From Gemmataceae bacterium (lineage in GTDB: Bacteria; Planctomycetota; Planctomycetia; Gemmatales; Gemmataceae): a stretch of DNA of 43,173 bases. Below, in pieces: positions 10,873 to 43,173 of this stretch. The notes below the pieces were generated by a model, which saw only the letters and a list, made by a program, of their open reading frames with translations, did not search any database and had not been told where the DNA came from. The DNA is taken from contig JBGSZR010000301.1 of NCBI GenBank assembly GCA_041750275.1, forward strand, positions 1 through 43,173, in the 5' to 3' direction. Every line of letters begins with the position of its first letter. Position 1 is the stretch's first letter. A program made the position numbers and the translations under genes.

Positions 10873-11304
10873 GGGCTCCCGTTTATGTGGGGGGTCGGGC
10901 ACTCCCTTGCTTCCCTATTCTAGGAGCGCCCATGCCGGTGTGATGCCGGACGGACGCGAAAAAAGGGGGAAAGGTTCGGCTCGCCGCCCTCCCTGTTGAT
11001 TCGATGGCCCCGAGGCAAGATTGGATGCGGAATCGCACCTGACTCGGTGATACCGTTCGTCCCCCATTAAATGAAGATCAGTCCCGCACCAAATTGCGCC
11101 ACTTCCTTGGAGATTCGCCGGACTCACTGGTGTTCGCGGCTCCGTTTGCCACGCTTGCCAGTCTTCACAACGCACCGGCCATTCCATCGTATGAACCGCA
11201 TCGATCGTCGTCGCCTATTCCATGCAACTTCCCGACCGATGGCGGACAAGGAATCAATTCTTCTCACATAGCCGATCGCAAGTGGCGGGCTCACTGGGAT
11301 GGCC

Positions 11305-17300: not shown

Positions 17301-17779
17301 GTGCCGCAGATGAGATCTTCGAAGCCATCGCGGTTCACGTCGCCGAGGCCGATGTTCACACCGCCACGGAAGGAATCTTCGTACGGGAAGAAGCTCTGGA
17401 CCTCGTCGCCACTCACGCCGTCGTAGAGTTTCACCTGGGGCCCGCCGCCGTTGCCGGCACCCACGGCGATATCGGCTCGCCCATCACCGGTGACATCACC
17501 GACCGCCACGAAGACACCGCCCGTGAATGATTCGTCGAACGCCAGGAAATCGCGAATGACGGAGCCATCCTTGCCGCTGAACACCTTGATTTGCGGTGTG
17601 TGTCCCGCACCGGCCCCGGCGACGATGTCCGTGTAGCCATCGCCGTTGATGTCGCCGAGCCCGACGGAGACGCCGACCCCGGCCGGGGTGAGGCGATCTT
17701 CCAGGCGTTCGAACGCCAGTGGTTTGGGTCGGCGGGAAATAGGGGAAGACGTGCGCACGCGGCGCGTGAACCAGGTCAT
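14348..17779 (-). CDS. Large secreted FG-GAP repeat / subtilisin-like (peptidase S8) protein
   Basis: 1143 aa. The N-terminus carries a 'LAFERLEDRLTP' motif. About 7 FG-GAP repeats follow (GDxNGDGxxD…GGPxVK). Central Ig-like regions lead to an S8 catalytic triad: 'VAVLDTGVD' (Asp), 'DGHGTHVAG' (His) and 'GTSMSTPIVSGAAAL' (Ser). A C-terminal domain of about 180 aa is of unknown fold. Confidence 0.85.
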   Translation of the reverse strand: MTWFTRRVRTSSPISRRPKPLAFERLEDRLTPAGVGVSVGLGDINGDGYTDIVAGAGAGHTPQIKVFSGKDGSVIRDFLAFDESFTGGVFVAVGDVTGDGRADIAVGAGNGGGPQVKLYDGVSGDEVQSFFPYEDSFRGGVNIGLGDVNRDGFEDLICGTGVGGGPRVVVYSGQDGTKLMDFFAYESSFRGGVNAGGADVNGDGFDDVLCGTGVGGGPRIIAFDGRDGTMIRNFFAYEDSFRGGVSAAAADLDGDGRDEILAGSGVGGGPVVKAFGLSDAAPVLSYLAFDGSFRGGVNVAGGDVNGDGKEDIIAGSGPGNNSLVLGTLSTGSSFTSFSAFDGPPPGGFATRAEPQLALQYGSNSLSVVPGTDSFLPVIVSVKNPSAGSRIRFSQTITPSTGLTINSDHPGSGWTTTAADTSFTVSQTFKGITLGTYTVRTTATIEGTAISVSRDLTVRVVTTTQPVPALTAPTTFPSAIPPNSIANVLFTTVLTGTNTAPASVTLEEVDVAGNVLDTVGSLRDDGTNGDLVAGDNVYSGAFFNLSGGSDTLQFFRTRQTIGSTTVTSASGSLLATDAPTSFAIPDTSTAVTDPATGYSLIPNQLLVKFAEGTTFTEIQAVATAEGGTLIGASPALGFYQFTIPGAATAATVNAAIVQWQTHAEVVKASANSVGEADTTIAGDDTTSGGYWYDLIRADEARVVAEGFRTLVAVLDTGVDYNHSELAPFITKGPDFGMGDDDPADIDGHGTHVAGLIAASRGDGGTTGISGSPVLAVKVFGDGSTSLRQAETGVSAGIEYAVARGAKIISMSLGGFPPDSIVGDAVAQAQAAGRLVVASAGNLSTLEKRYPAAFEGVLSVGNTNSADVRSPSSNYGDWVRITAPGEMIRSTVPLGPNLKTNSLDPTGYRELTGTSMSTPIVSGAAALVWNTYPELTAVEVQERLVRSAKPFDPFSQTAADFPNAGRLDVFEAIVNGSFENGLTGWTTSGTTGSLTALGPASPITGSFMGYVSTGPAGAVTNASLEYQFTPSAAASTVTISLWYQFITEEFPEFVGTKFNDVLIIEVEGPGGGTLATESVNGSAFTRDDRYQFPGGDSSAGTTGWRRKELVVPLTDGATYNLRIRIADAGDGIFDSVALIDGIEFR

Positions 17780-26333: not shown

Positions 26334-27989
26334 TTACGCCAGCGGGCGGCCAGAGCGGCGGTTCTTCTCCACCTTCGCGGCCGTTTCAAGGGCAATCTGC
26401 TGCCACCAGCTTTTCCAGCCCGGATGAAGCCGAGACCCCGCGGCCAGGTAGCTTCGCAGAAAGCGGAGTCGCTGCGATCGCGTGACCTGGCCCGGCGTGA
26501 GGAAACTGGCGTTCAGGCGGGCAAGTTCACGGCAGCGCTGGCGGAAGCCAACAACACGCCCCACTCGCACACCGACGAGGTCGATGAACACGGGTGAACC
26601 CTCACGCAGCAGAATGTTCGCCGCCTTCAAATCGCGGTGCGAAACAGCGCGATCGTGCATCGCCCGAATGAGCCGCGGAAGTTCTTCGACAGGCACGGCC
26701 GCATCGAGATCACACGCCGCCGGCACCAGTTCCGTCAGCAAATAGCCCTCGGCCGGCAAGCCACGGCGATAGCGGTGAAACGCCGCGAGCGGTCGCGGTG
26801 TCGGCAACCAGCGGTCGCGCAGGGTGTGGCCATTCATCCAGGAACGCAGCACGGGCGAACGCCGCAACCGATTCTTGAGCGGCTCATGCCATTTGCGGAT
26901 GTTGACCCGCTTGAGCACAACCTCAAGCGGGCCCGTAGGTGTGATCAACGTGAACGCGGCCACCGTCGAGGTGCGCGAATCCTTCAGCAACTTCACATCA
27001 CTGTGGTTAAAAATAGCGTCCGGGTCCGGCAAGAGTGCTTGCAGGGCCGCCTCTGGCAGATCACGCACGACGTGTCCCCGAAGCGAGTTCCGCTTCACCT
27101 GGCGGAAATAGCGATTGGTGCCGAGGCAGCGCGATTGCCGGCCAGCCCAGAAGCCGAGATTCGAGCGAAGCGTTGCACACTCTACTTCGCGGGCGAGCTT
27201 CGCCGAGGAAGCCTGACGCAGTGCGAAGCGATGGGCGAAATAGCTGCACCAGAAGCGATGGCGGTCGCTGCGGGTGACACGCATCTGGAACCAGCGGTTG
27301 AAGAGTGTGAGGTTGGCCCGGCTTTCGCGCCACGAAAGCACTGAGCCAATGCGTACGGCGTGCAGGTCGATGAGCACGAATCGTGGAATGCCATCGGCCG
27401 GCCATTCGACCAGAAGATTGCCGGCGTGTGGGTCCGGGTGGGCGACACCAGCCTCGTGCATCGCGGCCAGGAACTCGCCGAGCCCATGGGCGAGTTGCCG
27501 GCGCATGGCGGGTTGGGCGTCGAGCGGAGCCGTGGGCAGCACGCGTTCGGCGAACTCGAGGAAGGAAATTGCCCGCTCCTCGGCGCGGGTGATGAGGAAG
27601 CTTTCGCCCGGCCATACGGAATCGATGTGTCCCCAGGCCAGCGGTTCCACGGCCGCGATGCCACGCTCGGCCAGCAGGCGTGCGTTCTCGAATTCGAGCT
27701 TCGCTTTCGCGGGCCGAAGCACCTCTCGTGCCCAGGCCCGTGGACCCGTGATGCGGCAATGTTTCACGAAGATGGTGGCCGTGGGGAGCGTCACGCGGTA
27801 AACGATGCGGGCGGGGTTCGACTTCACGATGATCGCCGAGCCATCCGCGATCCAGCGGGCGAGATCGGGCGCGTCGAATACGAACTTCGCCGCGGGTGTG
27901 AGGTGCCAGACGCGGCCCTGTTGTGTCACACGCCGCTCGACGCGGCGCGACCCGAAAGGCGAGAGTTTGCGGAGGAAGTGGCTGAACAT
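26334..27989 (-). CDS. Lipopolysaccharide kinase (Kdo/WaaP/InaA, PF06293) family protein with two kinase-like halves
   Basis: The first half has the catalytic-loop-like 'HPDPHAGNLLVEW' and 'VLIDLHAV'. The second half has the canonical 'SHRDLKAANILLREG' and 'FIDLVGV'. The start is placed at ATG 27989, 12 nt past the stop of the upstream GT4 gene. The longer ORF running to 28163 would overlap it. Confidence 0.72.
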   Translation of the reverse strand: MFSHFLRKLSPFGSRRVERRVTQQGRVWHLTPAAKFVFDAPDLARWIADGSAIIVKSNPARIVYRVTLPTATIFVKHCRITGPRAWAREVLRPAKAKLEFENARLLAERGIAAVEPLAWGHIDSVWPGESFLITRAEERAISFLEFAERVLPTAPLDAQPAMRRQLAHGLGEFLAAMHEAGVAHPDPHAGNLLVEWPADGIPRFVLIDLHAVRIGSVLSWRESRANLTLFNRWFQMRVTRSDRHRFWCSYFAHRFALRQASSAKLAREVECATLRSNLGFWAGRQSRCLGTNRYFRQVKRNSLRGHVVRDLPEAALQALLPDPDAIFNHSDVKLLKDSRTSTVAAFTLITPTGPLEVVLKRVNIRKWHEPLKNRLRRSPVLRSWMNGHTLRDRWLPTPRPLAAFHRYRRGLPAEGYLLTELVPAACDLDAAVPVEELPRLIRAMHDRAVSHRDLKAANILLREGSPVFIDLVGVRVGRVVGFRQRCRELARLNASFLTPGQVTRSQRLRFLRSYLAAGSRLHPGWKSWWQQIALETAAKVEKNRRSGRPLA

Positions 27990-28000
27990 GGGTGTGCCGG

Positions 28001-29014
28001 TTAACCCGCCCTCCGCGTTGGTTCGTTCAATCGCGGTAGCGCTGCGAGCCATAGCTGGCTGCCGGCGGTGGTGCTGTAAGCTTGTTTCACCTGCTCGCGA
28101 CCATTCCGGCCGAGGCGTTGCCGCAAGCTTGCCTCGGTGAGTTGCCGCACGGCGTTCACCCATTGCTCGGTGGTGCTGGCCTGGAAGCCGGTGACACCTT
28201 CACGCACGAACGCTGCCTGCACGCCGACGGGGTTGGCAATCACCGGTAGGCCCGCAGCCTGATATTGCAGCACCTTCAGCCCGCACTTGCCCCGGCTCCA
28301 GGGGTCGTCCGGCACCCAGCCGATGCCGATATCCGCGCTCGTAATCTCGGCAGCCTCGGTGGCATCATTCCAGGGGCAACGATCGACGGGCATATCCGGG
28401 ATGTCGATAAAACGATCGCAGATAAGCTTGAGCCGCGTGCCGGGCACGGCCCGACCGATGGCGGACAGCGTGGGTGTGAACTGCTCCAGGCCGCGCAGTG
28501 TGCTGGATGAACCGACCCAGACGAGTTGCAGCCCCGCTCGCGCAGGCCGTTCGCTGTGCGGATACTTCACCATGTCGATGCAGGTGGGCACCACAATAAC
28601 GCGCTCGGATGTGGTGTACCTTCGTGCCGCCTCGGCGAGGTACCCGTTGCCCGCGAGAACCAGGTCGCACGCTTCAATGATGCGGCGAAAGCGGTGTGTG
28701 CGTTTCGGCGATTCGAAGCCCTTCGCGGCATAAGAATCACGCAGCCACACGGCGTCGTCGAAATCGAACAGAAGTTTCTTCACACGGCGGCGGAGCAGAG
28801 TGAGTGCGACACGCGGGAGCAACTTGCGTTGCACAATCACCGCATCGGCAGCGGCAAGGTCGCGGCCGAGGGTCAGTCGAGCGAACCACGAAGAGGGCAG
28901 TGCTTGAATCGTCAGGGAATGCCCCACAGCTTCGAGCGCAGGGCGAAATGCTGCCAGCCGATAGCGGGCACAGACATGATTCTCAGACTCGGCCAACGCA
29001 ACCAGCTGCACCAC
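28001..29014 (-). CDS. Glycosyltransferase family 4 (GT-B fold)
   Basis: C-terminal 'GWVPDDPWSRGKCGLKVLQYQAAGLPVIANPVGV…VREGVTGF' is the EX7E-type GT4 nucleotide-sugar-binding region. Confidence 0.82.
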   Translation of the reverse strand: MVQLVALAESENHVCARYRLAAFRPALEAVGHSLTIQALPSSWFARLTLGRDLAAADAVIVQRKLLPRVALTLLRRRVKKLLFDFDDAVWLRDSYAAKGFESPKRTHRFRRIIEACDLVLAGNGYLAEAARRYTTSERVIVVPTCIDMVKYPHSERPARAGLQLVWVGSSSTLRGLEQFTPTLSAIGRAVPGTRLKLICDRFIDIPDMPVDRCPWNDATEAAEITSADIGIGWVPDDPWSRGKCGLKVLQYQAAGLPVIANPVGVQAAFVREGVTGFQASTTEQWVNAVRQLTEASLRQRLGRNGREQVKQAYSTTAGSQLWLAALPRLNEPTRRAG

Positions 29015-30236: not shown

Positions 30237-31919
30237 CTGCAAATCGTAGATGAAGAACTGTGGCGTGCGGCCCACGGGCATGGCGGTGCGCAGCAAGTGC
30301 AGCGCGGCCAGGTGGCCGGGGAGTTTGGTCTCCTGGCCATACAGCACACTCATCGACACGGCCAGGTAACGCGTGCCAGAGAGGGAACGCAATTCGTCCG
30401 CGGTGCCGGTCTGCATGTCGAAGACGTGAATGGGCTTGAAGGGTGCATACAGGATGGCCGGGTCCGTGCCGAAGTACCAGATGGCAAGGGGTTGCCCGGC
30501 GTGCTCCTCGGCGTTCCATCGTTTGAGTGCCGGCAACCCCTGGCCCCAGTCGTAGTTCGAGTCGCTCAGATGGCGGTAGCCGTGCTCCACGCCGCCCCAG
30601 AGTTGATTGGTGTAGCTCAGGCCATGCGGCCAGACCCACGCTGCCGTGCCTGCCATGATGGCCAGCAGCGTGCCAACGAACCAGCGCGGCACGAAGCGTC
30701 CTTGCTCGCCCTCCACCCAGGTGCGCGCGACGGCAACAGCCAGTGCGATGTCCATGGTCGCCATCAGGGTGAACATGAAGCGGATGCCGATCTGGACCCG
30801 GCAATTCAAACTGAAGAGAAATAGCACCAGCGCGATGCCACCGATGGGCGTGAGCAGATTCCGCGGGCGAATCATCAGCACCATCAGCAGCAGTGCCAGC
30901 ATCGGGGCTGGCGTCTTGATCGAGAGCGCGACGGGGAAGTATTCAGGTGTCGAACGCGGGTAGTAGCGGCCCAGCAGGAAGGTGCCATGGCCGCGCATGT
31001 TGTGTTTGATCTGTTGGATCAGTGCTTCGCCGGCATTCGGGAAAATGGTCAGGCGTTCGCTTAGCGGCAACATCACGCTTTTCACGGTGCTATCGGGCAA
31101 GCCTTCGGCCCAGGTCACGAATGTGGGCTCCGTGCCCCAGTCCGAACCGGTGTACGCAAAGACGAGCGCGAAGCCGATGCACATGATGGCGAGGAGATCG
31201 AGCCGCATCGCGAAGCCGGCGTGCCAGATGTGCACGAGCTGTTCACGCAGTCTGGCACCGGCTCGCGGCGCGAGCGTGCCCTGTTGATGCAGGTGAATGA
31301 GCCCGAGCACGAGCATGGCTTGCACGCCGAAGACCATGCCCGAGGCCTTGGCGAGTGTGGCAATGCCAAAGAGCAATCCGGGCACGAGCACACGCGGCAC
31401 CCAGTTTTTGCCCTGGCCGTGGTGATAGTGATAGATCAGGGCCAGCATCGCCGCGACGATGCCGATATCCGAGGTGGCGAGCGAAGCATGGCCAAGGAAG
31501 TTGGGATCGCAGGCAAGGAAGCCGACCGCCAACCGCCCGGCCCAGGGTCCACCAAAGGTGCGGCCGAGCAACAGCGCATAGCCGAGCAGCGCCCACCAGA
31601 AGAGCAGGTTCGCGGCACGGGCCACGGGCAGGATGGTGGCGATGTCCTGATAGGCGTGGAATTCGCTGCCTCGGTGGCATTCCCAGAGGTAAAGTGGCAG
31701 CGTTTGCGCGTCGATGGTCAACGGCATGGCCCCGGCGGACATCAACGGCTTGTTGCTGCCGGTTCGCCACGAGTTCAGCCCGGCATTCAGATAGAAGGGT
31801 TCATCGAAGGTCGCGCCGATTTGCCCGGCCGCGGTCAGGCACCACGCCGAGGAGGCCAGGCCGAAGGCAAGCAGCCAGATCACATCGAGCCGCCAGCCGA
31901 AACCACACGACCGGATCAT
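30228..31919 (-). CDS. Polytopic membrane glycosyltransferase, PMT/ArnT-like (GT39/GT83 superfamily)
   Basis: 563 aa with about 12 TM helices. A conserved 'DEPFY' acidic motif sits in the first extracytoplasmic loop, as in ArnT/PMT-type enzymes. Long periplasmic loops are present. Confidence 0.55.
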   Translation of the reverse strand: MIRSCGFGWRLDVIWLLAFGLASSAWCLTAAGQIGATFDEPFYLNAGLNSWRTGSNKPLMSAGAMPLTIDAQTLPLYLWECHRGSEFHAYQDIATILPVARAANLLFWWALLGYALLLGRTFGGPWAGRLAVGFLACDPNFLGHASLATSDIGIVAAMLALIYHYHHGQGKNWVPRVLVPGLLFGIATLAKASGMVFGVQAMLVLGLIHLHQQGTLAPRAGARLREQLVHIWHAGFAMRLDLLAIMCIGFALVFAYTGSDWGTEPTFVTWAEGLPDSTVKSVMLPLSERLTIFPNAGEALIQQIKHNMRGHGTFLLGRYYPRSTPEYFPVALSIKTPAPMLALLLMVLMIRPRNLLTPIGGIALVLFLFSLNCRVQIGIRFMFTLMATMDIALAVAVARTWVEGEQGRFVPRWFVGTLLAIMAGTAAWVWPHGLSYTNQLWGGVEHGYRHLSDSNYDWGQGLPALKRWNAEEHAGQPLAIWYFGTDPAILYAPFKPIHVFDMQTGTADELRSLSGTRYLAVSMSVLYGQETKLPGHLAALHLLRTAMPVGRTPQFFIYDLQSL

Positions 31920-32013
31920 TGCTATCTCACCCCGTTCGATTCAATCGACGGGGTGAGATAACGAAAGCGGGCAGCCCACGCAAGCCGAACGGCTCGATCA
32001 TCGTAGAGTGCGC

Positions 32014-35000
32014 TCAGCGTTTCACGATGGCGAATTTCGGCGGCTGGCGTGGGAAGCAGATGGGTGTCTGAGTGTTGCCCGGATTCAGAGCGTCCATGAG
32101 TTCGGGCACACGGTTGGAGACGTAGCGGTAAAGTTCCTCTGCGCTGAGCACGCCATCCGTGTTGCGGTCTGCGGTGCGGTACTTGTCGCCGAGAGCATCG
32201 AGGATGGCATAGGTGAAGAGCCCGTGACCGAGCTGCGGGTCTTCATAGGAAAGCTCGCTCTGGTCGCAGGCGGCGATCACGAACGGACCCTGGCCATTGG
32301 GGATGAGCCTTCGCAACAGGTTGGCATCAGCGGCACCACCCGCGTGGCAGGCATCGAGCAGCACCAGCTTCCGGCAATTGATCCCGGCCAAGGTCTTGAA
32401 CAGATCCTCGGCCGAAACGGACGTCTGCGCCACATTATTGTCCGAGTAGTCCGGGCAGCAGAAGACGAACGGTCCAGGTTCGATGACCGCGCCGCGGCTA
32501 CCCCCAGGCCCGGCCGGGCCGCGCTTGGCACCGGGCAAGTCACCGTGACCCGCGAAGAAGACCACAAGCAAATCGTCCGGCTTCACGCGCCCCTTCATCG
32601 CGGCAAGGTCTTCCAGCACTTGTTGACGCTCGGCTTCCCGATTCAGGAGTGTCTCGATTTTGCCTTCGGGGTAGTGCCGGCCTTTGCCGAGATAAGCCTT
32701 GAAGCTGGCCTGCAAATCGGTGGCGTCCTTCACGGCGTTGCGGAGATCCTGGAAACCCTTGCGGGGCGCGATGGCCGCGGCGGCAACCTGGCTATTCGCA
32801 TAGTCGTTCACACCGACCACCAGCCCGTGCAAGCTGGGCGAACCGGCCGTGTTGGGGTTACGCACCTGTTCCGTGCCCTCACCACGCCCACCGCGTGCGT
32901 TGAACGTGAGCACGGTGAACTTATTCTCCCCTTCGCGAAATGCCGAAGCGGGGATGGGCAATGCCGCGGTGAAGACCATGCGCGGATCGAGCGGCGCACC
33001 GCCCGGTTGTGGCCAGGTGGCAATGCGGTAGTCGTTCAACCACAACTCCACATGCTCGGGAAGCAAATCCGGGTTGGAACCGCGAGGCTTCACCTCGATG
33101 GTTGCAGTGACAGGGCCCTGACCCACCACCAGCGAGTCCAGGAAGACCCTGGGCGGCGCGGGTTCGAACTTGCTGAACGTGCCCGGTCGCGGATCTTCCT
33201 CGGCGAGCAATTGCAAGGCGTCGGCGACACTGCGGCTGGTCACGAGCTTTTGCAACACCGCGTACTTGTGGTAGTGGTCCTCGAACTGGTTGAACTGGTA
33301 GAAGACAGGTCGGCCATCAGCCTCGGGTGCGTTCACGTGCCAGCCGATGATGCGATCGCCGTTGGCACTCTCGGTGTGGTAATAGGAACCCTTCCACATC
33401 CAGATGACCCAGTCGGTCATGCGGCCCGCGTCGTCGAATCCGGGGAACCACTTCCAAAGTGGCCGCTGCCGCACCGTGGTGAGCGTCTCGCGGCGCGGTT
33501 TCCCGGCCGCTTCCAGGCCGAAGTACAGTTCCTTCCCAGGAATGGGGCTCTTCACCGCGGCCACGACATCACGGGCGGTGCCAAGCGGAGACTGCCCGGG
33601 GCGATGATCGAAGATGATGGTGCCACCATCGACCACGAGCAGGTCGATCACTTCACCGGCAGAGAGCCCAGCTTCCCAGGCCGGGGAACCAACGTCCACC
33701 GCGAGCACCGTGGGCTTGCCATTGGCGACCTCGATCTTCGCTCCGAGCCCGGCATTGCTCGGCCAGTCCTCCAGGCTGTATGAGGCAACGGTGTGGTCGG
33801 CACCTCCACTCACGAACCACGTCTGATCGGCTGCCGCCACGAGCGAGAGCACCGGGCCGCTGTGACCGGTGAAGAGTTTTGTGCGAGTGACGCCATCGGG
33901 CTGCAGTTCGAAGAGCGAGCAACCATAGTCGTGGCCGACCAGCAACCGTGTCGGCTTGCCATTCTTCGCGGGGATGAAGGTGAAGCAGGTGGGTGCCTGA
34001 TCGCGGCCGCGGTCGAGCGCGAGTGCGAAGCCATCGGCGGGGCCATCCTTGTGCACCGCACGCCAGACGAAGCGGCTGTGCTTATCCGGAATCACCGTCC
34101 AGCCATCGGCCGAGGCAAGCGGATCGACCCACTTCTGCCCCTCGGGGTTGCCCTTCCCCATGCGGGGAACGTTGAACGCGGTCCAGTTGCCGGTGCCGCG
34201 GGCGTTCGGGTGGTTCGCCTCGGGGTTGCGGCCGGTCTGGATGCCGAGCATGTTGCCGTTGGTCGAGAGGTTCACCGCCCAGGGCCGACGCCCGGCACCG
34301 CGCACCACGGTCAGCGGCTCCTTTGGCTTGGCGAGATCGAGCAGCGTGACCTCATCGGCATCGCCACCCGCGATGGCCAGGCGATTCTCACTGGGGTGAA
34401 AGGCGAGCGCCTCGGCCGGGCCGGTGTGGGAAAGCTTTGAGACCGGTTCGAAGGCCCCTGTCGCCGGCGGTGCCTTCGTGAGCCAGATCGTGTCGTTGCC
34501 TTCAAGGTAAAACTGGGGCTTGATGTCGCGAGCACCACCGACGCCGATGGCAAGTTCACCGTTCGCGGGGTTCACGGCGATGGCACGTGGAAAGTGGCCC
34601 TCAGGCAGGGCGAGGCGGGCGGCATTCTTGCCATCGAGCGAACGTATCAGCACGAGTGGGTCAAGGCAACCGAGCACCACGGACTGGCGGTCCGCCGTGA
34701 GTTCGGCCCGATAAACCCAGTGAGTGGCTTCCCCCGGCTGGTTCTGGTCATTGATGTCGAAGGTGCGAACGGCCGCAGGGATTGGCTTCGCGGGGTCATC
34801 GCTCAGCGGACCGGCGAGGCTCCAGAAGCCGACCTTGCCATCGAGCGAGACCGCACCGAGCGAGTCCGCGTCCGGGAAGAAGAGGAGGCGGGGATAGTTG
34901 AATTCCTCGGCAGTTTCGCCGCGTTTTGCGGGTGCGAACTTGCCCACACGCGCAGGAGAATTCCAGGTGTGGCCATCTCGTTTGGGTTCGAGCAGTTTGG

Positions 35001-35523
35001 CTGGGTCCCAGAGCCAGAGGCTGCCATCCGCTGTGCCGAAGGCGAGTCGCCGGCCATCGGGGTGGAAGGCGATGGCCATCACGGAGAAGTAGTTGTCGAT
35101 GCCGTTGCGACCGTTGGGCCAGGTCTGGGCGATGGTGTCGCCGGTCTCACGATCGACGATGGCAACCGTGGCGGGCTTCATGCCATAGCCGCCGATGGCG
35201 ACACGCTTGCCATCGGCACGGATGTCGATGGCTTTTACGCCTCCGCGCTGTTCACGCCAGGCACGCCAGCGCAAGGTCTTTGCCTGATCGAGATCGAGCC
35301 CGGCCGCGGCGTGGGGCCAGGCACGCACGACCTTGTCGTCGCCGCCTGCGAACAGGAACGCACCATCCCGGCTGAAACGCAGCACATCGCACGTGCCGAA
35401 CCGTCCGCCCGCCTCGACCACCACTTCAGGCTCATCGCGATTGCGACGATCCAGTTGCTGGGCATCCGTGAGTGGAGCGAAGCCGGCAAAGGCGATGGCA
35501 GTGAGAATCAACCGGGCAGACAT
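32014..35523 (-). CDS. Secreted WD40 β-propeller / PDZ / caspase-like (peptidase C14) multidomain protein
   Basis: 1169 aa. It has a Sec signal peptide (MSARLILTAIAFAGFAPLTDAQQ). The N-terminal roughly 500 aa are WD40-like repeats. A PDZ-like segment ('KPTVLAVDVGSPAWEAGLSAGEVIDLLV') follows. The C-terminal C14 domain retains the catalytic dyad 'VVFFAGHGD' (32541–32567) and 'LLDACHAGG' (32334–32366). Confidence 0.85.
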   Translation of the reverse strand: MSARLILTAIAFAGFAPLTDAQQLDRRNRDEPEVVVEAGGRFGTCDVLRFSRDGAFLFAGGDDKVVRAWPHAAAGLDLDQAKTLRWRAWREQRGGVKAIDIRADGKRVAIGGYGMKPATVAIVDRETGDTIAQTWPNGRNGIDNYFSVMAIAFHPDGRRLAFGTADGSLWLWDPAKLLEPKRDGHTWNSPARVGKFAPAKRGETAEEFNYPRLLFFPDADSLGAVSLDGKVGFWSLAGPLSDDPAKPIPAAVRTFDINDQNQPGEATHWVYRAELTADRQSVVLGCLDPLVLIRSLDGKNAARLALPEGHFPRAIAVNPANGELAIGVGGARDIKPQFYLEGNDTIWLTKAPPATGAFEPVSKLSHTGPAEALAFHPSENRLAIAGGDADEVTLLDLAKPKEPLTVVRGAGRRPWAVNLSTNGNMLGIQTGRNPEANHPNARGTGNWTAFNVPRMGKGNPEGQKWVDPLASADGWTVIPDKHSRFVWRAVHKDGPADGFALALDRGRDQAPTCFTFIPAKNGKPTRLLVGHDYGCSLFELQPDGVTRTKLFTGHSGPVLSLVAAADQTWFVSGGADHTVASYSLEDWPSNAGLGAKIEVANGKPTVLAVDVGSPAWEAGLSAGEVIDLLVVDGGTIIFDHRPGQSPLGTARDVVAAVKSPIPGKELYFGLEAAGKPRRETLTTVRQRPLWKWFPGFDDAGRMTDWVIWMWKGSYYHTESANGDRIIGWHVNAPEADGRPVFYQFNQFEDHYHKYAVLQKLVTSRSVADALQLLAEEDPRPGTFSKFEPAPPRVFLDSLVVGQGPVTATIEVKPRGSNPDLLPEHVELWLNDYRIATWPQPGGAPLDPRMVFTAALPIPASAFREGENKFTVLTFNARGGRGEGTEQVRNPNTAGSPSLHGLVVGVNDYANSQVAAAAIAPRKGFQDLRNAVKDATDLQASFKAYLGKGRHYPEGKIETLLNREAERQQVLEDLAAMKGRVKPDDLLVVFFAGHGDLPGAKRGPAGPGGSRGAVIEPGPFVFCCPDYSDNNVAQTSVSAEDLFKTLAGINCRKLVLLDACHAGGAADANLLRRLIPNGQGPFVIAACDQSELSYEDPQLGHGLFTYAILDALGDKYRTADRNTDGVLSAEELYRYVSNRVPELMDALNPGNTQTPICFPRQPPKFAIVKR

Positions 35524-35736
35524 GGCAACTCCAGGGAATTAAGTCAAAGAGCTACCCGGACATGCAATTCCGTCTGAGGCCGCGGACAACCTGAAGACAA
35601 GTCTGCCGCCGATCGGAAAATCAGAACGCGGATCAGCCAGCTTTAATCCAGAACCGATCCACTGTGAACGATGGACGATATCGTCTGACTCTGATCGCAA
35701 GTCGTGCTTATTCAATCGGCAGCGGCTCATCTGAGT

Positions 35737-36351
35737 TCATCGCTCATCCTGGCGTCGTTCGGCGGCAGCGGTCTCGTGGGCCAGTTCCTCGATGCGTTCG
35801 ATGACCCGGCGAATCTTGCGATCGTAGCTCTTCAGCTCCGCGGCAATCTCCGTCGTCGAGTATCCCTGCAGTCGCATCTCCAGCACCCTTCGATCAAACT
35901 CGGGCAATTGCTTCATGAAGCGTTCGAACTCATCGAGCAGCGTCACTTCCACATCGGGAGCCTGTTCGCCGGTCGAGAGTTGCTGCAGCATCTCCTGGGC
36001 GGTGGAGCCGTGGCCGCATTCCAGTTCCGGGTTGCGCTTGGCGGCCCGGTGAAAGGCGACTTGCCGGAGAGTCTTGTGCACCGTTAGCCGCACCAGCAGC
36101 TTGAAGAGATCGTTCTCGCCTTCGAAGGTGAATTCGTCGTTCTTCACACGCACAAAGAATGTGCGGAATGCCGACTGGATCACATCCTCGGGGTCCACAC
36201 GGCTCGTCATGCGCTGGCCGATGCGACGGCGAGCCAGCTTCATCAGCCGTTCGCAATATCGGTCGAAGAGCTCCGTGGCCGCGGATTCGCTCCCCTCCTT
36301 GAACATCTGGATGAGGTCGCGGTCGTCGGTCGGGTCGGGTGGTTCGGGCAT
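35737..36351 (-). CDS. ECF-type sigma-70 family sigma factor
   Basis: It is 204 aa when started at ATG 36351 (MPEPPDPTDDRDL). Region 2 is 'DPEDVIQSAFRTFFVR'. Region 4 is a helix-turn-helix, 'DRRVLEMRLQGYSTTEIAAELKSYDRKIRRV'. The longer ORF running to 36708 would overlap the divergent gene's upstream region. Confidence 0.85.
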   Translation of the reverse strand: MPEPPDPTDDRDLIQMFKEGSESAATELFDRYCERLMKLARRRIGQRMTSRVDPEDVIQSAFRTFFVRVKNDEFTFEGENDLFKLLVRLTVHKTLRQVAFHRAAKRNPELECGHGSTAQEMLQQLSTGEQAPDVEVTLLDEFERFMKQLPEFDRRVLEMRLQGYSTTEIAAELKSYDRKIRRVIERIEELAHETAAAERRQDER

Positions 36352-36505
36352 GGGTTTGGCTCGTGTGCGGGAAGGCGGCCCTGCCACAACCGCTACGATA
36401 CTCGTTGTTCCAAGCGGGGTCAAAGGGTGTTCGCACTCTGTGTGCTGCAACGACACCTGCTTCGGTATATCATGCGCAGATCGCACCCGGCAGCGGAGAG
36501 GCCTT

Positions 36506-39500
36506 ATGTCCAGCGGAACCCCCGGCGGGAACTGGCGCAATGCAGGCGGCAATCGCCCCGCCTCCAGCAGCAGCACCTCACGCCGCTCCTGGCAGCCCGG
36601 AAGCTCCACAAACAAGCCCGTGATCGGCAAGCGCCGATCACGCCTGGGCCGCTTCCTCTTCGCGGGCCTGCTTACCGGGGTCATCCTCGCCCTGATCGTG
36701 GTCGTCATTTACTACTGGCAGCCGGCGAAGTACCCCACGCTGGTCGTCGTTGGCCCGGCTGGTGGAAGTTCGCTCTCCACGATCGATAATTCCGCCGGTG
36801 TCAATGCGGCCTCGCGCCTGGCCGACTGGGCGAAAGAGGGTGATAGTCGCCCCAAACTTGCCGCCCCGGCCGCCGACACCGCGGACAAGAACGCCTGGCA
36901 AGGCAAACTCGACGGCGATGCGAAGTCGCTGGTGCTCTACTTCAGCGCACCCGGCGGCGCAGACGCCACAGGGCCGTTCCTCTGGTTCATCCCCGAGGGC
37001 GTTCGCACACCCACCGCCGACCACAAGATCTACATTCGCGACATCCTCACCCGCCTCGAAGGACTGCCGAAAGGGAAGTCGAAATTGCTCATCTTCGATG
37101 CAGCACGCCTGCGAGCGAGCGACCCGCACGGAATGCTCTTCAACGACTTCGCCCGTGCTCTCAAGGAACTCGATGCGAAGATCGATAGCATTGAGGGCCT
37201 GGTGGTCATCTGCTCTTCGGACGAGGATCAGCGTGCCTGGGATTCGGAAGAATGGCGTTCTTCCGTGTTCGGTCATTTCTTCCTGGAGGGGCTGAAGGGT
37301 GCAGGTGGCAAGCAGGCCGGTGAGCGCATTACGGCGGCCGAGTTGTTCGACTATAGCAGCGCCGAGACGGCGAAGTGGGCACTCGCGAACCGCGATGAAA
37401 AGCAGACGCCCATCCTGCTGCCTCTGGGGAAAGGCCGGGAACGAGCTGCAAAGCTCGAACTCGCCTCCGTGCCGAGCAGTGGCTTCACGGCAGCCTCACG
37501 CCCCGAAGTTCCTGCCAAGATGCCCGCCGATCTCGAGGCCGCGTGGGGCACGGCCTTCCAGCTTTCGCAGCGCGTGCCGGCACCGGACACGCTCGACCCA
37601 CTGAAGTGGCGTGAATACCTCGATCTGGTGCTGCGTTGGGAACGACTGGTGCGATTCGGCGAGAACCCGGAAGGCGTGCGGGCCAAGGCACAGTTGCTCG
37701 CGGGGCAATTGGAATTGACACATGGTGCCGCGGATCCGCCCTGCCTGCCCGTGGCGTTCCCCGCAGGCCGGGCGCTCGGTGTGCCGCTCATCAAGAGCGA
37801 TCTCGCTGCCTTCAACAAGCTCTGGGCCTCTCCGGCGGGTGCCGCCCGTGGCGATGAGTGGCTGAAACAACTCGGGCCAACTCGCGCGAACGAGACCGCC
37901 CGGCGCATCGCTGTTGCCGAGATGGTCGTCGAACGCGTGGTCAACGACGGCCCGACTTCCGAGACGCTGGCGACCGCCGACGATGTGCTGGGAACCGTGG
38001 ATGGCCCGCGTGTCGGCACGGCAGAAGCGCACTTCATCCGCATCCTGCACCGCCGGCTCGATCCCCACCCCGAATCGCGGCCCGGTGTCGACGTACTAAT
38101 CGAAGCCATCAAGCTTCGCCGCGAGGCCGAGGAGACAGCGTGGGTCTTCGGTGCGGATACAAACCAGTACCCGCATGGTGAGTCGCTGTTCCGCTGGGTC
38201 GGCCGCACGGTGCTGTCGGGTGATGCCGCACGCCGCTCGGGCGAGGATTTGCTGTTCGATGGCAATGCCGATTCCTGGAAGAAGGCGGCTGAGGTTTATT
38301 TCCCCGAAGCCCGCACCCAGTACAAGCAAGCTCGCGACCAGGCTCGCATCATCACGGCCGCGTTCACGGCCCGCGACAAGGTGCTGGCTCGCCTGCCATA
38401 CTATGCACGCTGGCTCGCCGCTTACCGCGGCCCGATTCCCCCGTCCGAAGTCGAACGGCTTCTCGGCAAGTGCGAATCGGCCGCACGCGGAGCCCACACC
38501 TTGCACGGTTTCTTCCTCGAAGACCGAGCGGATGAAGCGATTCTTGGCCAACTGGGCAACATCGATAAGCTCACGAAGAGTGTGAACGCGGACTTCGACG
38601 AAGTGGTCAAGGCCTTCGATGCCGAGGTCGGCAGCTTCGCCAACACCGTGCATCCCTCGAACTGGCACGCACTGGACAATGCATTACGTGTGCCCTTTAT
38701 CCCCGCCCGCGAACGGGCCAAGCTGCTTGGCTATGTGCGCGACATCTCGTTCCAGCTTGCCACGAAATCCGAACAACCTGGTGGTGCCGCCGCACCCGAT
38801 TTTCCCGCGCGTGATTTCGCCCAGCGCCAGGGTCGCGTTTCACTCGCACTTTTTGGCGATGATGCACCGGATCGACTTCGTGCCCTGGTGCTCACACCGA
38901 ACCCCGATGCGTGGTGGAAATCACTCCGCGAGGCCGGCGACCTTGTGGGTGGGAAGTATCAGAACCTGGCCCTCGAGATTCGCACGGAAACCACCAACGC
39001 CTCGGCGAAGCCCGAGTACCTGGATGGCGGTGCCGGCCTTCAAAAAGCAGCGTATCTCGCCCGGTTGGTCGATCCAGCCGCGGCACTTCCCATCGGTGAA
39101 GATCCGCCCGCAGCCGAGCGCCGCTTTCGCCAGCATGCCTTCCTCCTCTGGCATGCACGACGCACGGTAAACGATGGCTGGGCCAACTTGAACAGTACCG
39201 CTGCCGCCCCCTCGTGGTACTGCATGGACGCGGCGAAACTCTGCCTGGACACGGCCCGACCGCTCGCGCTTGGCACCGAGCCGAACCTGCCGCCGCTGGA
39301 GATCGAGCGCCGACTCAAAAGCCTCAACCAGGTGCAGGCACTCGGCCCAGTGATCCTTGATTTGCAGGGACCGGAGGAAAGCACCATCACCGATGCCCCG
39401 GTGTGGAATGTCGACTTCACACTCTCCCGGGCTGCGAAGGATGTGGTCGGTTTCCCGGTGTTCTGGGTGACACCGCCCGGTCCGGAACTGCTCAAAGCAG

Positions 39501-41488
39501 ACCCCACGCACCTGGGCCGCAAGTCTGAGCCGCGGCTTAGCACGCAAGAATCCGTCACGCATCGCTTGCAGTTCGCCGCGGTGCCGCAAAAAGCAGATTC
39601 CGGTGCCTCTGGGCAGTTCACCACGCGCGTGCTCTACCGTGGCCACATCTACGAGCGCACGACGGAGCTGCGGCCCACCGGCAGCCCTTCACGCACGCTC
39701 GTCTATTCGCCACCGAAGGGTGATGCGGCCTTCTATGTGATCGCGGATCGCAAGGACGTGGCCGGTGCCGTCACCATCCTGATCGACCGCAGCGACAGCA
39801 TGAAGTTGACCCCGGCGGGTGCCACGGAATCGAAGTACACCCAGGTGTGCGAGGCACTGCGCGAAATCCTCGACGACTTGCCCGAGAACACGGAGCTCAC
39901 CATCGCCGGTTTTTATGGTGAGAACCGCATCGTGCATGTGGCACCCGCAAACGGTCAAATGCCGATCACCTGGAAAGGCGGGGTGGAGCAGAAGAAGCGT
40001 GTCATGGCGGCGGTCGAAAGCATGACGCCCATCGACAACGGCATCACACCCATCGGCCTGAGTATTGAGCGGATTCTCTCGAAGGAAGGCGGAGCCGCGT
40101 TCTGGCCCAGGAATGCTTCCGGTGTGCGAACGCTCATCGTGCTGACGGATGGTGAAGACATCTCCACCGCGGCCAAGCCCGGGCACGTCGCTTTGAATGC
40201 CCTGCTCGATACCAGCGAGGACACGTCGCTGCACCTGGTGCTGTTCGCGCTGAATGCGGACCAACAAACGAAGGCCATCGATCAGTTTGACGTCACGACG
40301 CACCTGCCCACGTTCCGGGAACGCGGTCGCACGCCGGCCGTGATTTACCCGAACGTGAAGAATGCGGCAGGCATTGCCGAAAAGATTCGCGAGGCAATGC
40401 GGCCGCGCGTGAAGTATTGCCGGGAAGAGACCGCAAATGATTCGCGGGCCTGGCGAAACCTGATCGTGACACTGCCAGGCGAACCGACACGCCGTCCGTC
40501 GATCGGTGTCCCCGCTGGTGATTACTACCTCCGCGGATTGCGTGATCCCCAGAAGCTCCGACTCGAACCGGGCGACCGCGTCATCCTCACCAGCGTGGCC
40601 AGCGGCAACAAGTTCAACCTCACAGTGCCCTCATTCGCTTACGATCTCGCCGGCGATCCCAACACCGGCTGGCCACGGGCCCAGTCGAATGCCGTGCGCA
40701 TGACTCTGGAAACCACGCGATTGCGTGCTCCAGGCGGCTTCACCGATCTCGATGCCGTGGTCACGCTTGAATCCAACAGCACCCAGGCAGGTGAATATCT
40801 CCGCTTGCCGCGCCCTGCCTTCGCCTGGTTCGATGTGACTGGCCCCGATGGCAAGCCAGGCGATCCCGAGCTGCGCACCGCACTCCGCATCGAGAATCGC
40901 ACTGGCCTCGTGGCACCCGCCTGGAACCTGCAACTCACACGCTGGGATCGCAGCGTGGCCCAGGATCGCATTCGCCGCCCGACGGTCACGGGCTTCTGGA
41001 TCGAAGGCTTCCCTGCACCAGCGTACAAGTACTCGTTCGACTTGCGGGCACTCCCCACCAAGACCACGCGCATTCTTGTCGATGGCCTGCCGGTGGATGT
41101 TGCCCCGCCCACGATCGAACATGCGGGCGGCCCCGGCCTGGAAGAAGGCGATTATCTCACCCTGCGTGCCAGCTACAGTGACCCCACCCGGCCCATTCTC
41201 ATTCGCCCCGGCAAGCTGAAGGGCGTGAACCAGCGGTTCGATCTCTGCGAGCAACACCTGTACTTCGACGCTTCAGGCCGATACACGGCAAGGTTTGGCC
41301 CCATCACGGAACTCGACAAGAAGATCGGCACCGTGGAAGCCGATTTCTTCTCGGTTTCCGATCTGCGTGAGCGTGCCCGTGGGCGGGATAACGAGCCCGT
41401 GCGAGCCGTGAGCGTGAGCTACCCCGGCACGCGCCCTCTCAAAACCGGCAACCTCTCCGCACTGCTGGAGTTCGAACCCGAGAAGTGA
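36506..41488 (+). CDS. Giant single-pass membrane protein: short cytoplasmic N-terminus, TM helix, catalytically degenerate caspase-like domain, long helical region, vWA domain, C-terminal β-rich region
   Basis: It is 1660 aa from ATG 36506, with GGAGAG 6 nt upstream. The ORF in the track starting at 36074 would overlap the sigma-factor gene. The TM helix is 'LGRFLFAGLLTGVILALIVVVIYYW'. The caspase-fold strands are 'LVLYFSAPGG' and 'LLIFDAARL', then 'VVICSSDED…FGHFFLEGLKG'. The vWA MIDAS motif is 'ILIDRSDSM', followed by 'TPIGLSIE…LIVLTDGED' (about 39765–40300). Confidence 0.8.
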   Translation: MSSGTPGGNWRNAGGNRPASSSSTSRRSWQPGSSTNKPVIGKRRSRLGRFLFAGLLTGVILALIVVVIYYWQPAKYPTLVVVGPAGGSSLSTIDNSAGVNAASRLADWAKEGDSRPKLAAPAADTADKNAWQGKLDGDAKSLVLYFSAPGGADATGPFLWFIPEGVRTPTADHKIYIRDILTRLEGLPKGKSKLLIFDAARLRASDPHGMLFNDFARALKELDAKIDSIEGLVVICSSDEDQRAWDSEEWRSSVFGHFFLEGLKGAGGKQAGERITAAELFDYSSAETAKWALANRDEKQTPILLPLGKGRERAAKLELASVPSSGFTAASRPEVPAKMPADLEAAWGTAFQLSQRVPAPDTLDPLKWREYLDLVLRWERLVRFGENPEGVRAKAQLLAGQLELTHGAADPPCLPVAFPAGRALGVPLIKSDLAAFNKLWASPAGAARGDEWLKQLGPTRANETARRIAVAEMVVERVVNDGPTSETLATADDVLGTVDGPRVGTAEAHFIRILHRRLDPHPESRPGVDVLIEAIKLRREAEETAWVFGADTNQYPHGESLFRWVGRTVLSGDAARRSGEDLLFDGNADSWKKAAEVYFPEARTQYKQARDQARIITAAFTARDKVLARLPYYARWLAAYRGPIPPSEVERLLGKCESAARGAHTLHGFFLEDRADEAILGQLGNIDKLTKSVNADFDEVVKAFDAEVGSFANTVHPSNWHALDNALRVPFIPARERAKLLGYVRDISFQLATKSEQPGGAAAPDFPARDFAQRQGRVSLALFGDDAPDRLRALVLTPNPDAWWKSLREAGDLVGGKYQNLALEIRTETTNASAKPEYLDGGAGLQKAAYLARLVDPAAALPIGEDPPAAERRFRQHAFLLWHARRTVNDGWANLNSTAAAPSWYCMDAAKLCLDTARPLALGTEPNLPPLEIERRLKSLNQVQALGPVILDLQGPEESTITDAPVWNVDFTLSRAAKDVVGFPVFWVTPPGPELLKADPTHLGRKSEPRLSTQESVTHRLQFAAVPQKADSGASGQFTTRVLYRGHIYERTTELRPTGSPSRTLVYSPPKGDAAFYVIADRKDVAGAVTILIDRSDSMKLTPAGATESKYTQVCEALREILDDLPENTELTIAGFYGENRIVHVAPANGQMPITWKGGVEQKKRVMAAVESMTPIDNGITPIGLSIERILSKEGGAAFWPRNASGVRTLIVLTDGEDISTAAKPGHVALNALLDTSEDTSLHLVLFALNADQQTKAIDQFDVTTHLPTFRERGRTPAVIYPNVKNAAGIAEKIREAMRPRVKYCREETANDSRAWRNLIVTLPGEPTRRPSIGVPAGDYYLRGLRDPQKLRLEPGDRVILTSVASGNKFNLTVPSFAYDLAGDPNTGWPRAQSNAVRMTLETTRLRAPGGFTDLDAVVTLESNSTQAGEYLRLPRPAFAWFDVTGPDGKPGDPELRTALRIENRTGLVAPAWNLQLTRWDRSVAQDRIRRPTVTGFWIEGFPAPAYKYSFDLRALPTKTTRILVDGLPVDVAPPTIEHAGGPGLEEGDYLTLRASYSDPTRPILIRPGKLKGVNQRFDLCEQHLYFDASGRYTARFGPITELDKKIGTVEADFFSVSDLRERARGRDNEPVRAVSVSYPGTRPLKTGNLSALLEFEPEK

Positions 41489-41619
41489 TTGAGGAGAGGG
41501 AGTGGGCTGATGTGGCCCACTTTCAGACAACACGAAGCGGATAGCTTACCGAGCGTGGTATACAGAGTGACCAGGAACCACGGCGAGGTTCGCAGGCAAA
41601 CCCACGTGGCATGCATCGT

Positions 41620-42141
41620 TCATCCAAAGAGGAGCAGCACATTCCAGGGTGGTGTCTTCTCGAATTCACAACCCAGGATGAAATTGTCCCCTTCCTTCTT
41701 GCAACTGCGGACGATCACGGTCACGAAACCGATGTTGTCCGGAGCATTCGCAGCACGGACCTGGATGACGCTGCCGGACACCATGGCGGACGTCATGACG
41801 ATGCGGAGCCCGCCGGTGGAGCGATCGACCACCAGACCATCATTCACGCCGTTGCGAAAACTGTTCGACGAGAGCAACACACGCACCGGAGCCCCATCGC
41901 GGCGCACGGCGCCACGCCGATCCGCGTACGATTGCTCGGGCGGGGCCCAGTTCAGGGCTTTCTCTTCCTTCGAGGCGTTGGCCGCCCCCAGCGAAATCGC
42001 TGCCGCATCCAGCCCATCCCGGCGGCGACGGTTCAGGAAAAAAAGCCCAGTGAGCACGACAATGGCCACCAAGCCACCGATAGTGACGGGCAGATTGTGA
42101 AGGGCAAAAGCACGAATCGCATCGAGGTACTGCGCGAACAT
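41620..42141 (-). CDS. PilZ-domain protein with N-terminal TM helix (putative c-di-GMP receptor)
   Basis: An N-terminal TM helix (PVTIGGLVAIVVLTGLFF) is present. The two PilZ motifs, 'RRGAVRR' (RxxxR) and 'DRSTGGL' (DxSxGG), are correctly spaced. Confidence 0.68.
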   Translation of the reverse strand: MFAQYLDAIRAFALHNLPVTIGGLVAIVVLTGLFFLNRRRRDGLDAAAISLGAANASKEEKALNWAPPEQSYADRRGAVRRDGAPVRVLLSSNSFRNGVNDGLVVDRSTGGLRIVMTSAMVSGSVIQVRAANAPDNIGFVTVIVRSCKKEGDNFILGCEFEKTPPWNVLLLFG

Positions 42142-42356
42142 GGATGACCTCTGCCACCGGAATGAGTCGGATCAGGCTGGAAGCAACTGCCTCGGCAGCC
42201 CACATCCGGACGAACCGGAGGAAAACGTACAGCCAACCTAGCACACGTCTGACGCGATGGGAGAAATCTCGCTCAAGAGAATGAACTTCAGGCTAGAAAC
42301 GAACGTGGCCCACCCAGGCCGGGTGAGCCACTAAACACAGACGATTCACAGGCAAT

Positions 42357-43173
42357 TTACGGCTTCAGCACACCTGGCAGGGCGGAGGCGTCCAGCTTGT
42401 ACTTGATCGTTTCTGTGGTGAGCTCGGATTCGACGCGGCCCAGTTTGTCCTTCACCTGAATTTTCACGGCTCCGTTCATCGACACTTCACCGGTGCCCGC
42501 GAGGAACGAAAGGCTTTCGCAAGTGCCTTCCGCACCGAAGCCCACGAAACGAACCTTGCCGGACGCGGTCACGGCGGAAAGGCTCTGGCCTTTCTCAGGC
42601 GATTTGATGTCCACCTTCTCGCAAACCACCTTCATCACGAGATCATCGCCGCTGCGGACTTCGAACATCGGCTCGCCTTCACCGACTCGCAGGATGATGC
42701 GAAACTTGGTCGCGGCCGTCGCGATGGCCACGGGCGGTGCCACGTTCGCGCTGATGGGCTGAATGGTCGCGGCGGGCGGTGTCACCGGGCCAGGCGTGCT
42801 TGGTTCGACCACCATCGGTGGCGTGCTCGGTGTCACGGCGACAGGCGGAGCAGCTGGCGCGACCACCAACGGAGGGGTCGGCTGCGGGGTCGGCTTCGTG
42901 AACTCGATCGGCGGAGCAACCACCGGCGGATTCGTCGAAGGAAGTGTCGGTTCTGGCCCGGTCGGCAGCACCACGGGTGGGGGCACCTGGGGTGCGAATT
43001 CGGGAACCTGTGTCGTGGTGCCACTCACCGGGATCACCGGCAAGGCCGGGGCCGAAACTGGCAGTTTCATTTCGACCGGCTTGCTTTCGTTCACCACCGG
43101 CAGCACCGGCACCGAGGCTGGCGGCGGCACGCTCGGCAACAGCAGCGGATCGGCCGGTTGAGTCGTCGGTGCG
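42357..43173 (-). CDS. Proline-rich protein with a C-terminal β-rich domain, 5'-truncated by the window edge
   Basis: The frame stays open to the window edge with no in-frame stop upstream. The N-terminal part is a P/V/T/A-rich low-complexity region. The C-terminal roughly 110 aa are β-strand-like ('FRIILRVGEGEPMFEVRSGDDLVMKVVCEKVDIKSPEKG…'), perhaps LptC/OstA-like. A possible terminator hairpin lies at 42305–42331. Confidence 0.5.
   Translation of the reverse strand, partial: APTTQPADPLLLPSVPPPASVPVLPVVNESKPVEMKLPVSAPALPVIPVSGTTTQVPEFAPQVPPPVVLPTGPEPTLPSTNPPVVAPPIEFTKPTPQPTPPLVVAPAAPPVAVTPSTPPMVVEPSTPGPVTPPAATIQPISANVAPPVAIATAATKFRIILRVGEGEPMFEVRSGDDLVMKVVCEKVDIKSPEKGQSLSAVTASGKVRFVGFGAEGTCESLSFLAGTGEVSMNGAVKIQVKDKLGRVESELTTETIKYKLDASALPGVLKP

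Follow-up and report, generated by a model that had tools for sequence, protein, structure and literature searches.

A gene trio of ECF sigma factor, secreted caspase and giant pseudo-caspase membrane protein on a Gemmataceae contig, best read as a rearranged piece of a type VI secretion-associated regulon

The classical arrangement of an extracytoplasmic function (ECF) sigma factor with a membrane anti-sigma factor and regulated proteolysis is RpoE–RseA–DegS/RseP. Pseudo-caspase and paracaspase scaffolds are represented by cFLIP, which acts with caspase-8, and by MALT1. To our knowledge, control of a type VI secretion system (T6SS) by a kinase together with an ECF sigma factor is limited to Xanthomonas, where it runs through an intermediate regulator. 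In Xanthomonas citri the T6SS is controlled by the Hanks kinase PknS and the ECF43 sigma factor EcfK (PMC13147305, PMC13584744). The PknT–EcfP pair of Vibrio parahaemolyticus is cited as an ECF43 case with a phosphorylation-activated sigma factor (PMC13147305, PMC7826278). The hallmark of ECF43 is a QTTA motif, with a phospho-Thr, in place of DxxD (PMC13147305), and kinase-associated ECF groups have been described (PMC7826278). The DNA analysed here (the window) is a 43,173-bp contig of 62% GC from a Gemmataceae bacterium (JBGSZR010000301.1). An ECF sigma factor gene (35737..36351, minus strand) is placed in it between the gene for a secreted WD40–PDZ–caspase protein (32014..35523, minus strand) and the gene for a giant membrane protein with a pseudo-caspase and a vWA domain (36506..41488, plus strand). 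The three open reading frames and the gaps between them (213 nt from sigma factor to caspase gene, 154 nt from sigma factor to giant gene) were exactly where a preliminary description, made from the letters of the DNA, had put them; that description had proposed that the trio forms a compact envelope signalling or regulated-proteolysis module. The region is made of the lead genes of two modules, which are apart in related Gemmataceae and side by side only on this contig. The favoured interpretation is that a T6SS-associated regulon is represented here by a rearranged and stripped-down fragment. The whole reading (two relocated modules, a T6SS-associated ECF regulon, kinase-type activation of the sigma factor, and a giant protein that is not an anti-sigma factor) is given a probability of roughly 0.58.

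Relatives of the giant were collected as 37 full-length proteins. A genome scan with 13 sequences returned 39 loci, brought to 43 by contig look-ups. Caspase loci were taken from a metagenome scan (50 loci) and from look-ups (four more), and the trio was counted over the 44 that were non-redundant. Homologs of the sigma factor or the caspase were found by tblastn near the giant in 0 of the 43 giant loci, and the giant was found near the caspase in 0 of the 44 caspase loci. Adjacency of the three genes is specific to this contig among the sampled loci. The preliminary description had staked its module on recurrence of the trio as a neighbourhood in related genomes; since the trio was absent from every giant and caspase locus sampled, that neighbourhood is not conserved.

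Two modules were recovered by synteny. Module A consists of a divergent gene for a Hanks Ser/Thr kinase, the ECF sigma factor gene, the caspase gene, and genes for proteins of about 460 amino acids (aa; d459) and about 510 aa (d516), in that order. The kinase gene stands beside the sigma factor gene in many orthologous loci, and d459/d516-like genes lie 3' of the caspase gene in 22 of 29. In the closest relatives Module A extends to TssA, TssK, TssL and a short TssM without periplasmic domains. Module B consists of the giant gene followed by genes for a paralog of about 880 aa (p888) and a protein of about 640 aa (p633), and is often divergent from vgrG. Where the sequence continues past the giant gene, these two genes almost always come next. 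The 880-aa protein is a paralog of the transmembrane helix, pseudo-caspase domain and first helical part of the giant (hhalign, 98.2%; locus L041, 14999–17665, also L043 and L040). Many giant loci are T6SS clusters in which vgrG lies divergently upstream and TssM (550 aa), TssL, TssK, TssA and TssB are encoded close by, and vgrG or TssM/TssL/TssK was found near the giant gene in 17/43 loci. In one related genome a single T6SS cluster has Module A on one side and the giant operon on the other, with the caspase and giant stop codons about 15 kb apart. The TssK, TssL and TssM proteins are identical between loci L041 and L044.

A conserved motif of ECF architecture, TGTCCG-N16/17-GCAT, precedes the genes for the caspase, the 460-aa protein and the giant, as well as vgrG, by 50–200 nt. 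In the window it occurs as TGTCCG-N17-GCAT at 35562..35588 (minus strand), at −65 relative to the caspase start codon, and the caspase-gene motif is found at the same distance in 16 distinct loci. Giant genes carry the motif 66–200 nt upstream, on the correct strand, in many loci, among them that of Zavarzinella formosa, where the site before the giant operon is at −105. The 2.8 Mb searched contained 39 distinct strict sites, and 32 of these were located 20–250 nt upstream of one of these genes and on the same strand (caspase 16, giant 10, vgrG 3, d459 3); the upstream intervals make up 0.9% of the 2.8 Mb (binomial P = 9e-59 for 32/39). Positions flanking the selected core, which were unused for selection, also carried information. 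Back-to-back copies pointing in both directions were seen in the spacer between vgrG and the giant gene (L041, 9852 minus and 9857 plus; L014, 9760 minus and 9790 plus). A motif common to these four genes across genomes suggests one regulon, and we infer that the sigma factor whose gene adjoins that of the caspase acts on this promoter. A single T6SS-associated regulon under that sigma factor would then comprise vgrG and the operons of the caspase and the giant.

Upstream of the giant gene of the window no ECF motif, strict or degenerate, was found (best score −0.5 bits), and no sigma-70-type site was found on the giant strand within 31800–42400. The sigma factor of the window would drive the caspase gene, while the giant gene would be transcribed from some other signal; in this probable rearrangement the giant gene occupies the usual position of the kinase gene. 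Two further strict matches to TGTCCG-N17-GCAT are present in the window, at 11222–11248 (minus strand, 24 bits) and 11886–11912 (plus strand, 20.6 bits), where about 0.35 were expected. The former falls in the space separating the end of a NagB/PIG-L-type gene (11305) from a DUF2203 gene (10378–10902), 320 nt upstream of the latter; the site at 11886–11912 is antisense within the NagB/PIG-L gene.

The rearrangement might instead have joined two unrelated modules by chance, leaving three genes without a functional link. The trio is not conserved, the giant of the window is without the shared promoter, and neither module has its partner genes in the window, all as such a juxtaposition would have it. 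However, elsewhere both gene families are preceded by the shared motif, both modules occur in one T6SS supercluster, and the closest caspase homologs with context (54–56% identity) run on into TssA and TssK. Chance juxtaposition is considered unlikely, and a functional connection of the three genes in this lineage is supported. Because the modules flank one T6SS cluster in a related genome and share a promoter motif, the core of the preliminary description, envelope proteins with a dedicated sigma factor, can fairly be maintained as far as the shared cluster and the promoter found elsewhere go; the trio as a fixed unit did not stand, and the giant of the window has no such promoter.

The reading of the locus as a displaced part of a T6SS-associated regulon has several findings against it. 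The sigma factor gene is directly 5' of the caspase gene in 16 of 32 non-redundant loci, the other half being without an adjacent sigma factor gene, and the kinase ortholog was not found in the window by tblastn. Of 19 caspase loci whose sequence extends 5 kb or more past the caspase gene, only three (L044, L062 and L098) have T6SS genes 3' of the caspase gene; L059, with 4.6 kb downstream, is a fourth caspase locus with T6SS genes. Several giant loci have no T6SS genes within 10 kb. Fold searches with the giant gave no functional clue past caspase and vWA, and nothing TssM- or TssJ-like. The motif is linked to the sigma factor by position only. The known phospho-switch site does not appear evident in the sigma factor, to judge by its sequence, in which the acidic DxxD is kept. 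Finally, the contig may be a chimeric metagenomic assembly.

The sigma factor was confirmed as an ECF protein of PF07638 type, 204 aa in length, as also in the public gene call. PF07638 (Sigma70_ECF) scored 53.1 bits against a cut-off of 21.1, which places it in the ECF class (group IV), and TIGR02937 scored 39.1 bits against 42.9, slightly short of its cut-off. A longer reading frame at 35737–36708 (minus strand), with 119 additional codons overlapping the 5' end of the giant gene, was rejected as unsupported by homologs, gene call and promoter position. The gene is preceded by a sigma-70-type promoter, TTGACC-17-TATCGT, at 36395..36423 (minus strand), the sole sigma-70-like site within 31800–42400. 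This promoter is conserved upstream of orthologs, with like architecture 5' of the sigma factor gene in about 10 other loci. The sigma factor gene carries a housekeeping-type promoter and not an autoregulated ECF one. No gene with an anti-sigma domain adjoining the sigma factor gene was found in the window, and the earlier statement that a classical anti-sigma factor is absent next to it was borne out by domain searches.

In orthologous loci, as in X. citri, the ECF sigma factor has as its partner a transmembrane Ser/Thr kinase, encoded divergently, beside or within a T6SS locus, and there is no anti-sigma factor. The constitutive-type promoter, the conserved kinase neighbour and the lack of an anti-sigma domain fit a model of a kinase-activated ECF sigma factor, for which Vibrio EcfP and Xanthomonas EcfK are the established cases (PMC13147305, PMC13584744, PMC7826278). 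The sigma protein would be made constitutively and switched on after translation by its partner kinase, with no release from an anti-sigma factor; activation by phosphorylation, as in PknT–EcfP, fits the constitutive sigma-70-type promoter of the sigma factor gene here. By analogy with these systems, kinase control would be the better model for this sigma factor than an anti-sigma factor. The X. citri system differs in that its sigma factor acts via the AraC regulator TagK, whereas here the candidate promoter lies directly before vgrG and the giant gene. A further difference is that the window sigma factor keeps the DxxD of region 2.2, as DPED, and that the kinase is missing from the window. 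The region 2.2 acidic motif, R(V/F/L/I)D(P/A)(E/D)D, is kept in the window protein and 18 orthologs and is followed by V/I/L-Q-S in nearly all. Membership of ECF43 was therefore rejected, the QTTA hallmark being absent and DxxD intact in all of these proteins. As DxxD is intact, the claim is that this sigma factor may work like a kinase-activated ECF sigma factor, not that it is a member of ECF43.

The kinases paired with the sigma factor and caspase module carry an FGE-sulfatase-type domain (L098, 265–2820; L099, 340–2811; L047, 7533–9899), and the kinase at L044 (5802–8762) has a long TPR array in place of that domain. The 510-aa gene of L044 (15046–16596) gave a weak match to planctomycete cytochrome c (PSCyt1) at its N-terminus. 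A 609-aa protein of the window (26334–28163, minus strand) has two Kdo/WaaP-type lipopolysaccharide kinase-like stretches and weak APH and Pkinase matches; it is not orthologous to the sigma-linked kinases.

Pfam was near-silent on the giant (1660 aa), and its domains were for this reason examined through structure. AlphaFold2 models were made of aa 1–480 (predicted local distance difference test score, pLDDT, 80.7) and aa 481–1660 (pLDDT 74.9). A cytoplasmic tail of 46 aa (aa 1–46, predicted disordered over aa 1–43) is followed by one transmembrane helix (aa 47–71), in agreement with the single-pass topology and short cytoplasmic N-terminus described before. The proposal that this tail could serve as the anti-sigma factor was not upheld. 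The tail is too short and too disordered to resemble an anti-sigma domain, shows no sign of a folded one and has no HxxxCxxC-type motif, and its motifs are conserved in homologs without a sigma factor nearby. The recurrent divergent neighbour of the sigma factor is the Hanks kinase, and the promoter of the sigma factor gene is of sigma-70 type. A W-[KR] motif in the tail is common to the giant and the 880-aa paralog, which suggests that both have the same partner in the cytoplasm, distinct from the sigma factor. An ECF sigma/anti-sigma pair was rejected on the missing HxxxCxxC-type motif and on co-occurrence in 0/43 giant loci. The locus differs from RpoE–RseA in the absence of an anti-sigma domain, in an adjacency that is not conserved, in a sigma factor gene that is not autoregulated, and in a protease that is a caspase and not an HtrA-type or site-2 protease.

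In a model built on the preliminary description, these genes are a self-contained envelope-stress module: the sigma factor is bound by the tail of the giant and set free when the periplasmic caspase cuts the giant. The genes do adjoin, sigma factor and giant are divergent, the ectodomain of the giant shares homology with the neighbouring active caspase, and the tail bears conserved motifs; caspase folds, moreover, commonly dimerise. Yet the adjacency is confined to this contig, the disordered tail is no less conserved in loci lacking a nearby sigma factor, the W-[KR] motif of the paralog points to a partner other than sigma, and the gene that keeps returning beside the sigma factor is a kinase. 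This model is very improbable. In the preferred reading, that of a kinase-controlled T6SS-associated regulon, the giant would face the periplasm as a scaffold or adhesion-type protein of the T6SS neighbourhood and would not be an anti-sigma factor.

The domain following the membrane helix of the giant (aa 75–320; nt 36728–37465) was recovered as an alpha/beta domain in the AlphaFold2 model, by Foldseek and by hhalign. In Foldseek searches of the PDB, the MALT1 paracaspase was the top match, with legumain, metacaspase 9 and caspases (E 3.5e-7 to 3e-5), and hhalign matched aa 140–309 with the C14 domain of the caspase family of the adjacent gene (97.3%, E=2e-11). Of 37 homologs, 19 have His in the column of the catalytic His, where the window protein has Pro; in the column of the catalytic Cys, none of the 37 has Cys. 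Since the one column is variable and the other never Cys, the domain is that of a pseudo-enzyme, and the earlier description of a caspase fold lacking both catalytic residues is correct. A long helical region follows (aa 330–945), then a beta domain, a vWA domain (aa 1088–1300; nt 39767–40405) and C-terminal beta domains; the model of aa 481–1660 showed the helical region, beta domains and vWA domain. The vWA fold was found with its DxSxS…T…D metal site, and the residues of the metal ion-dependent adhesion site (MIDAS) are conserved, so that the MIDAS is intact, as had been described. The likeness to cFLIP and MALT1 is a caspase fold devoid of the catalytic dyad, whose gene is accompanied by those of paralogs and, in the window, by that of an active-type caspase. 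The proteins here differ in being bacterial, extracytoplasmic and membrane-anchored, and any heterodimerisation is putative. Convergent with the giant gene is a gene for a small PilZ-domain protein (41620–42141, minus strand), at the place where relatives have the 880-aa paralog.

The secreted protein (1169 aa) scored above the Pfam thresholds for WD40 and Peptidase_C14. Its N-terminus, MSARLILTAIAFAGFAPLTDA followed by QQ, reads as a typical Sec signal (signal peptide aa 1–21). The WD40 propeller region covers about aa 34–600 (E=1e-17), the PDZ-like region about aa 600–680 and the C14 caspase domain about aa 896–1161 (nt 32041–32838). Peptidase_C14 (PF00656) scored 45.9 bits against a cut-off of 21.4 over aa 901–1156. 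His993 and Cys1059 are invariant across 14 homologs, which gives an intact His–Cys dyad. More than 260 full-length homologs of this protein are present in Gemmataceae. Secretion by Sec, the WD40 repeats and an intact C-terminal C14 peptidase were in this way confirmed, and the caspase-like regions of both proteins are real caspase folds, by PF00656 for the secreted protein and by Foldseek and hhalign for the giant. Nearly all of the domain calls in the preliminary description were sustained by domain searches and structure models. The PDZ call was less clear: PF17820 gave a weak, partial match in the window protein (E=0.003), yet this PDZ family recurs in precomputed Pfam matches of many caspase homologs, and the GSPAWEAGL motif of the PDZ-like region is invariant in homologs.

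A caspase next to an ECF sigma factor could also belong to a conflict or defence system akin to EACC-type systems coupled to ECF sigma factors, since conflict systems with a caspase near an ECF sigma factor are on record (PMC8195603). The NCBIfam model caspase_w_EACC1 did match the window caspase at 65 bits, but its cut-off is 140. The caspase carries a signal peptide and is extracytoplasmic, the PADLOC match was to a generic caspase only with nothing specific, and the family is a conserved set of orthologs with a single architecture, whereas conflict systems typically vary in architecture. An origin in a conflict system is regarded as extremely improbable.

TssM in the related clusters is only about 550 aa long and has IcmF-related_N alone (L041, 19948–21618; L043, 19730–21376; L044, 21574–23244), and no gene for TssM periplasmic domains or for TssJ was found in the listed ±10 kb of these T6SS clusters. 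Non-canonical T6SS membrane complexes have been described with TssN-R in Bacteroidota (PMC10781749) and in Acinetobacter (PMC10564176). The loci of the relatives are alike in that they are visibly without TssJ and periplasmic TssM and have lineage-specific envelope proteins instead. Homology to the Bacteroidota TssN-R or Acinetobacter T6SS proteins was not found, and a structural role of the giant, p888 and p633 is only putative. The giant, the 880-aa and the 640-aa proteins might together form a Planctomycetota-specific envelope part of the T6SS that replaces TssJ and periplasmic TssM. The caspase might process or gate this part, perhaps by pairing with the dead caspase domains, and a kinase-activated ECF sigma factor might switch on the set directly via TGTCCG-N17-GCAT. 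This fuller scheme is speculative and considered doubtful.

On the 43-kb contig no T6SS core genes, kinase ortholog, d459/d516 or p888/p633 were found. The module borders in the window showed neither repeats, direct or inverted, nor traces of mobile elements. The genes could accordingly be a decaying remnant in a lineage that lost its T6SS, that is, left-over genes or spare paralogs with little present function. These absences and the loss of the ECF promoter of the giant are in keeping with decay, but the three reading frames are intact and full length, the MIDAS residues of the giant and the dyad and promoter of the caspase are kept, and the absences are those of one 43-kb contig. Decay is judged to be improbable. 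Under the reading as a rearranged piece of a T6SS-associated regulon, the gain for the window itself is modest: it holds an unusual, probably rearranged and stripped-down copy of the system. For Gemmataceae a concrete promoter motif and a candidate regulon are provided, and a plausible but wrong anti-sigma reading is corrected. Large uncharacterised envelope proteins, namely an active-type periplasmic caspase and two membrane proteins with pseudo-caspase domains, one of which also has a vWA domain, travel with T6SS clusters that have a truncated TssM. In the literature that could be searched, no description of the trio, of these proteins, of the promoter motif or of planctomycete T6SS membrane parts was found.

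A weak terminator-like hairpin (31967..31979, minus strand) was located directly 3' of the caspase stop codon, and the gene beyond it encodes an unrelated PMT_2-like membrane protein. The remainder of the window is made up of housekeeping genes. FG-GAP repeats, a subtilase (S8) domain and a fervidolysin-like prodomain were found combined in one 1143-aa protein (14348–17779, minus strand).

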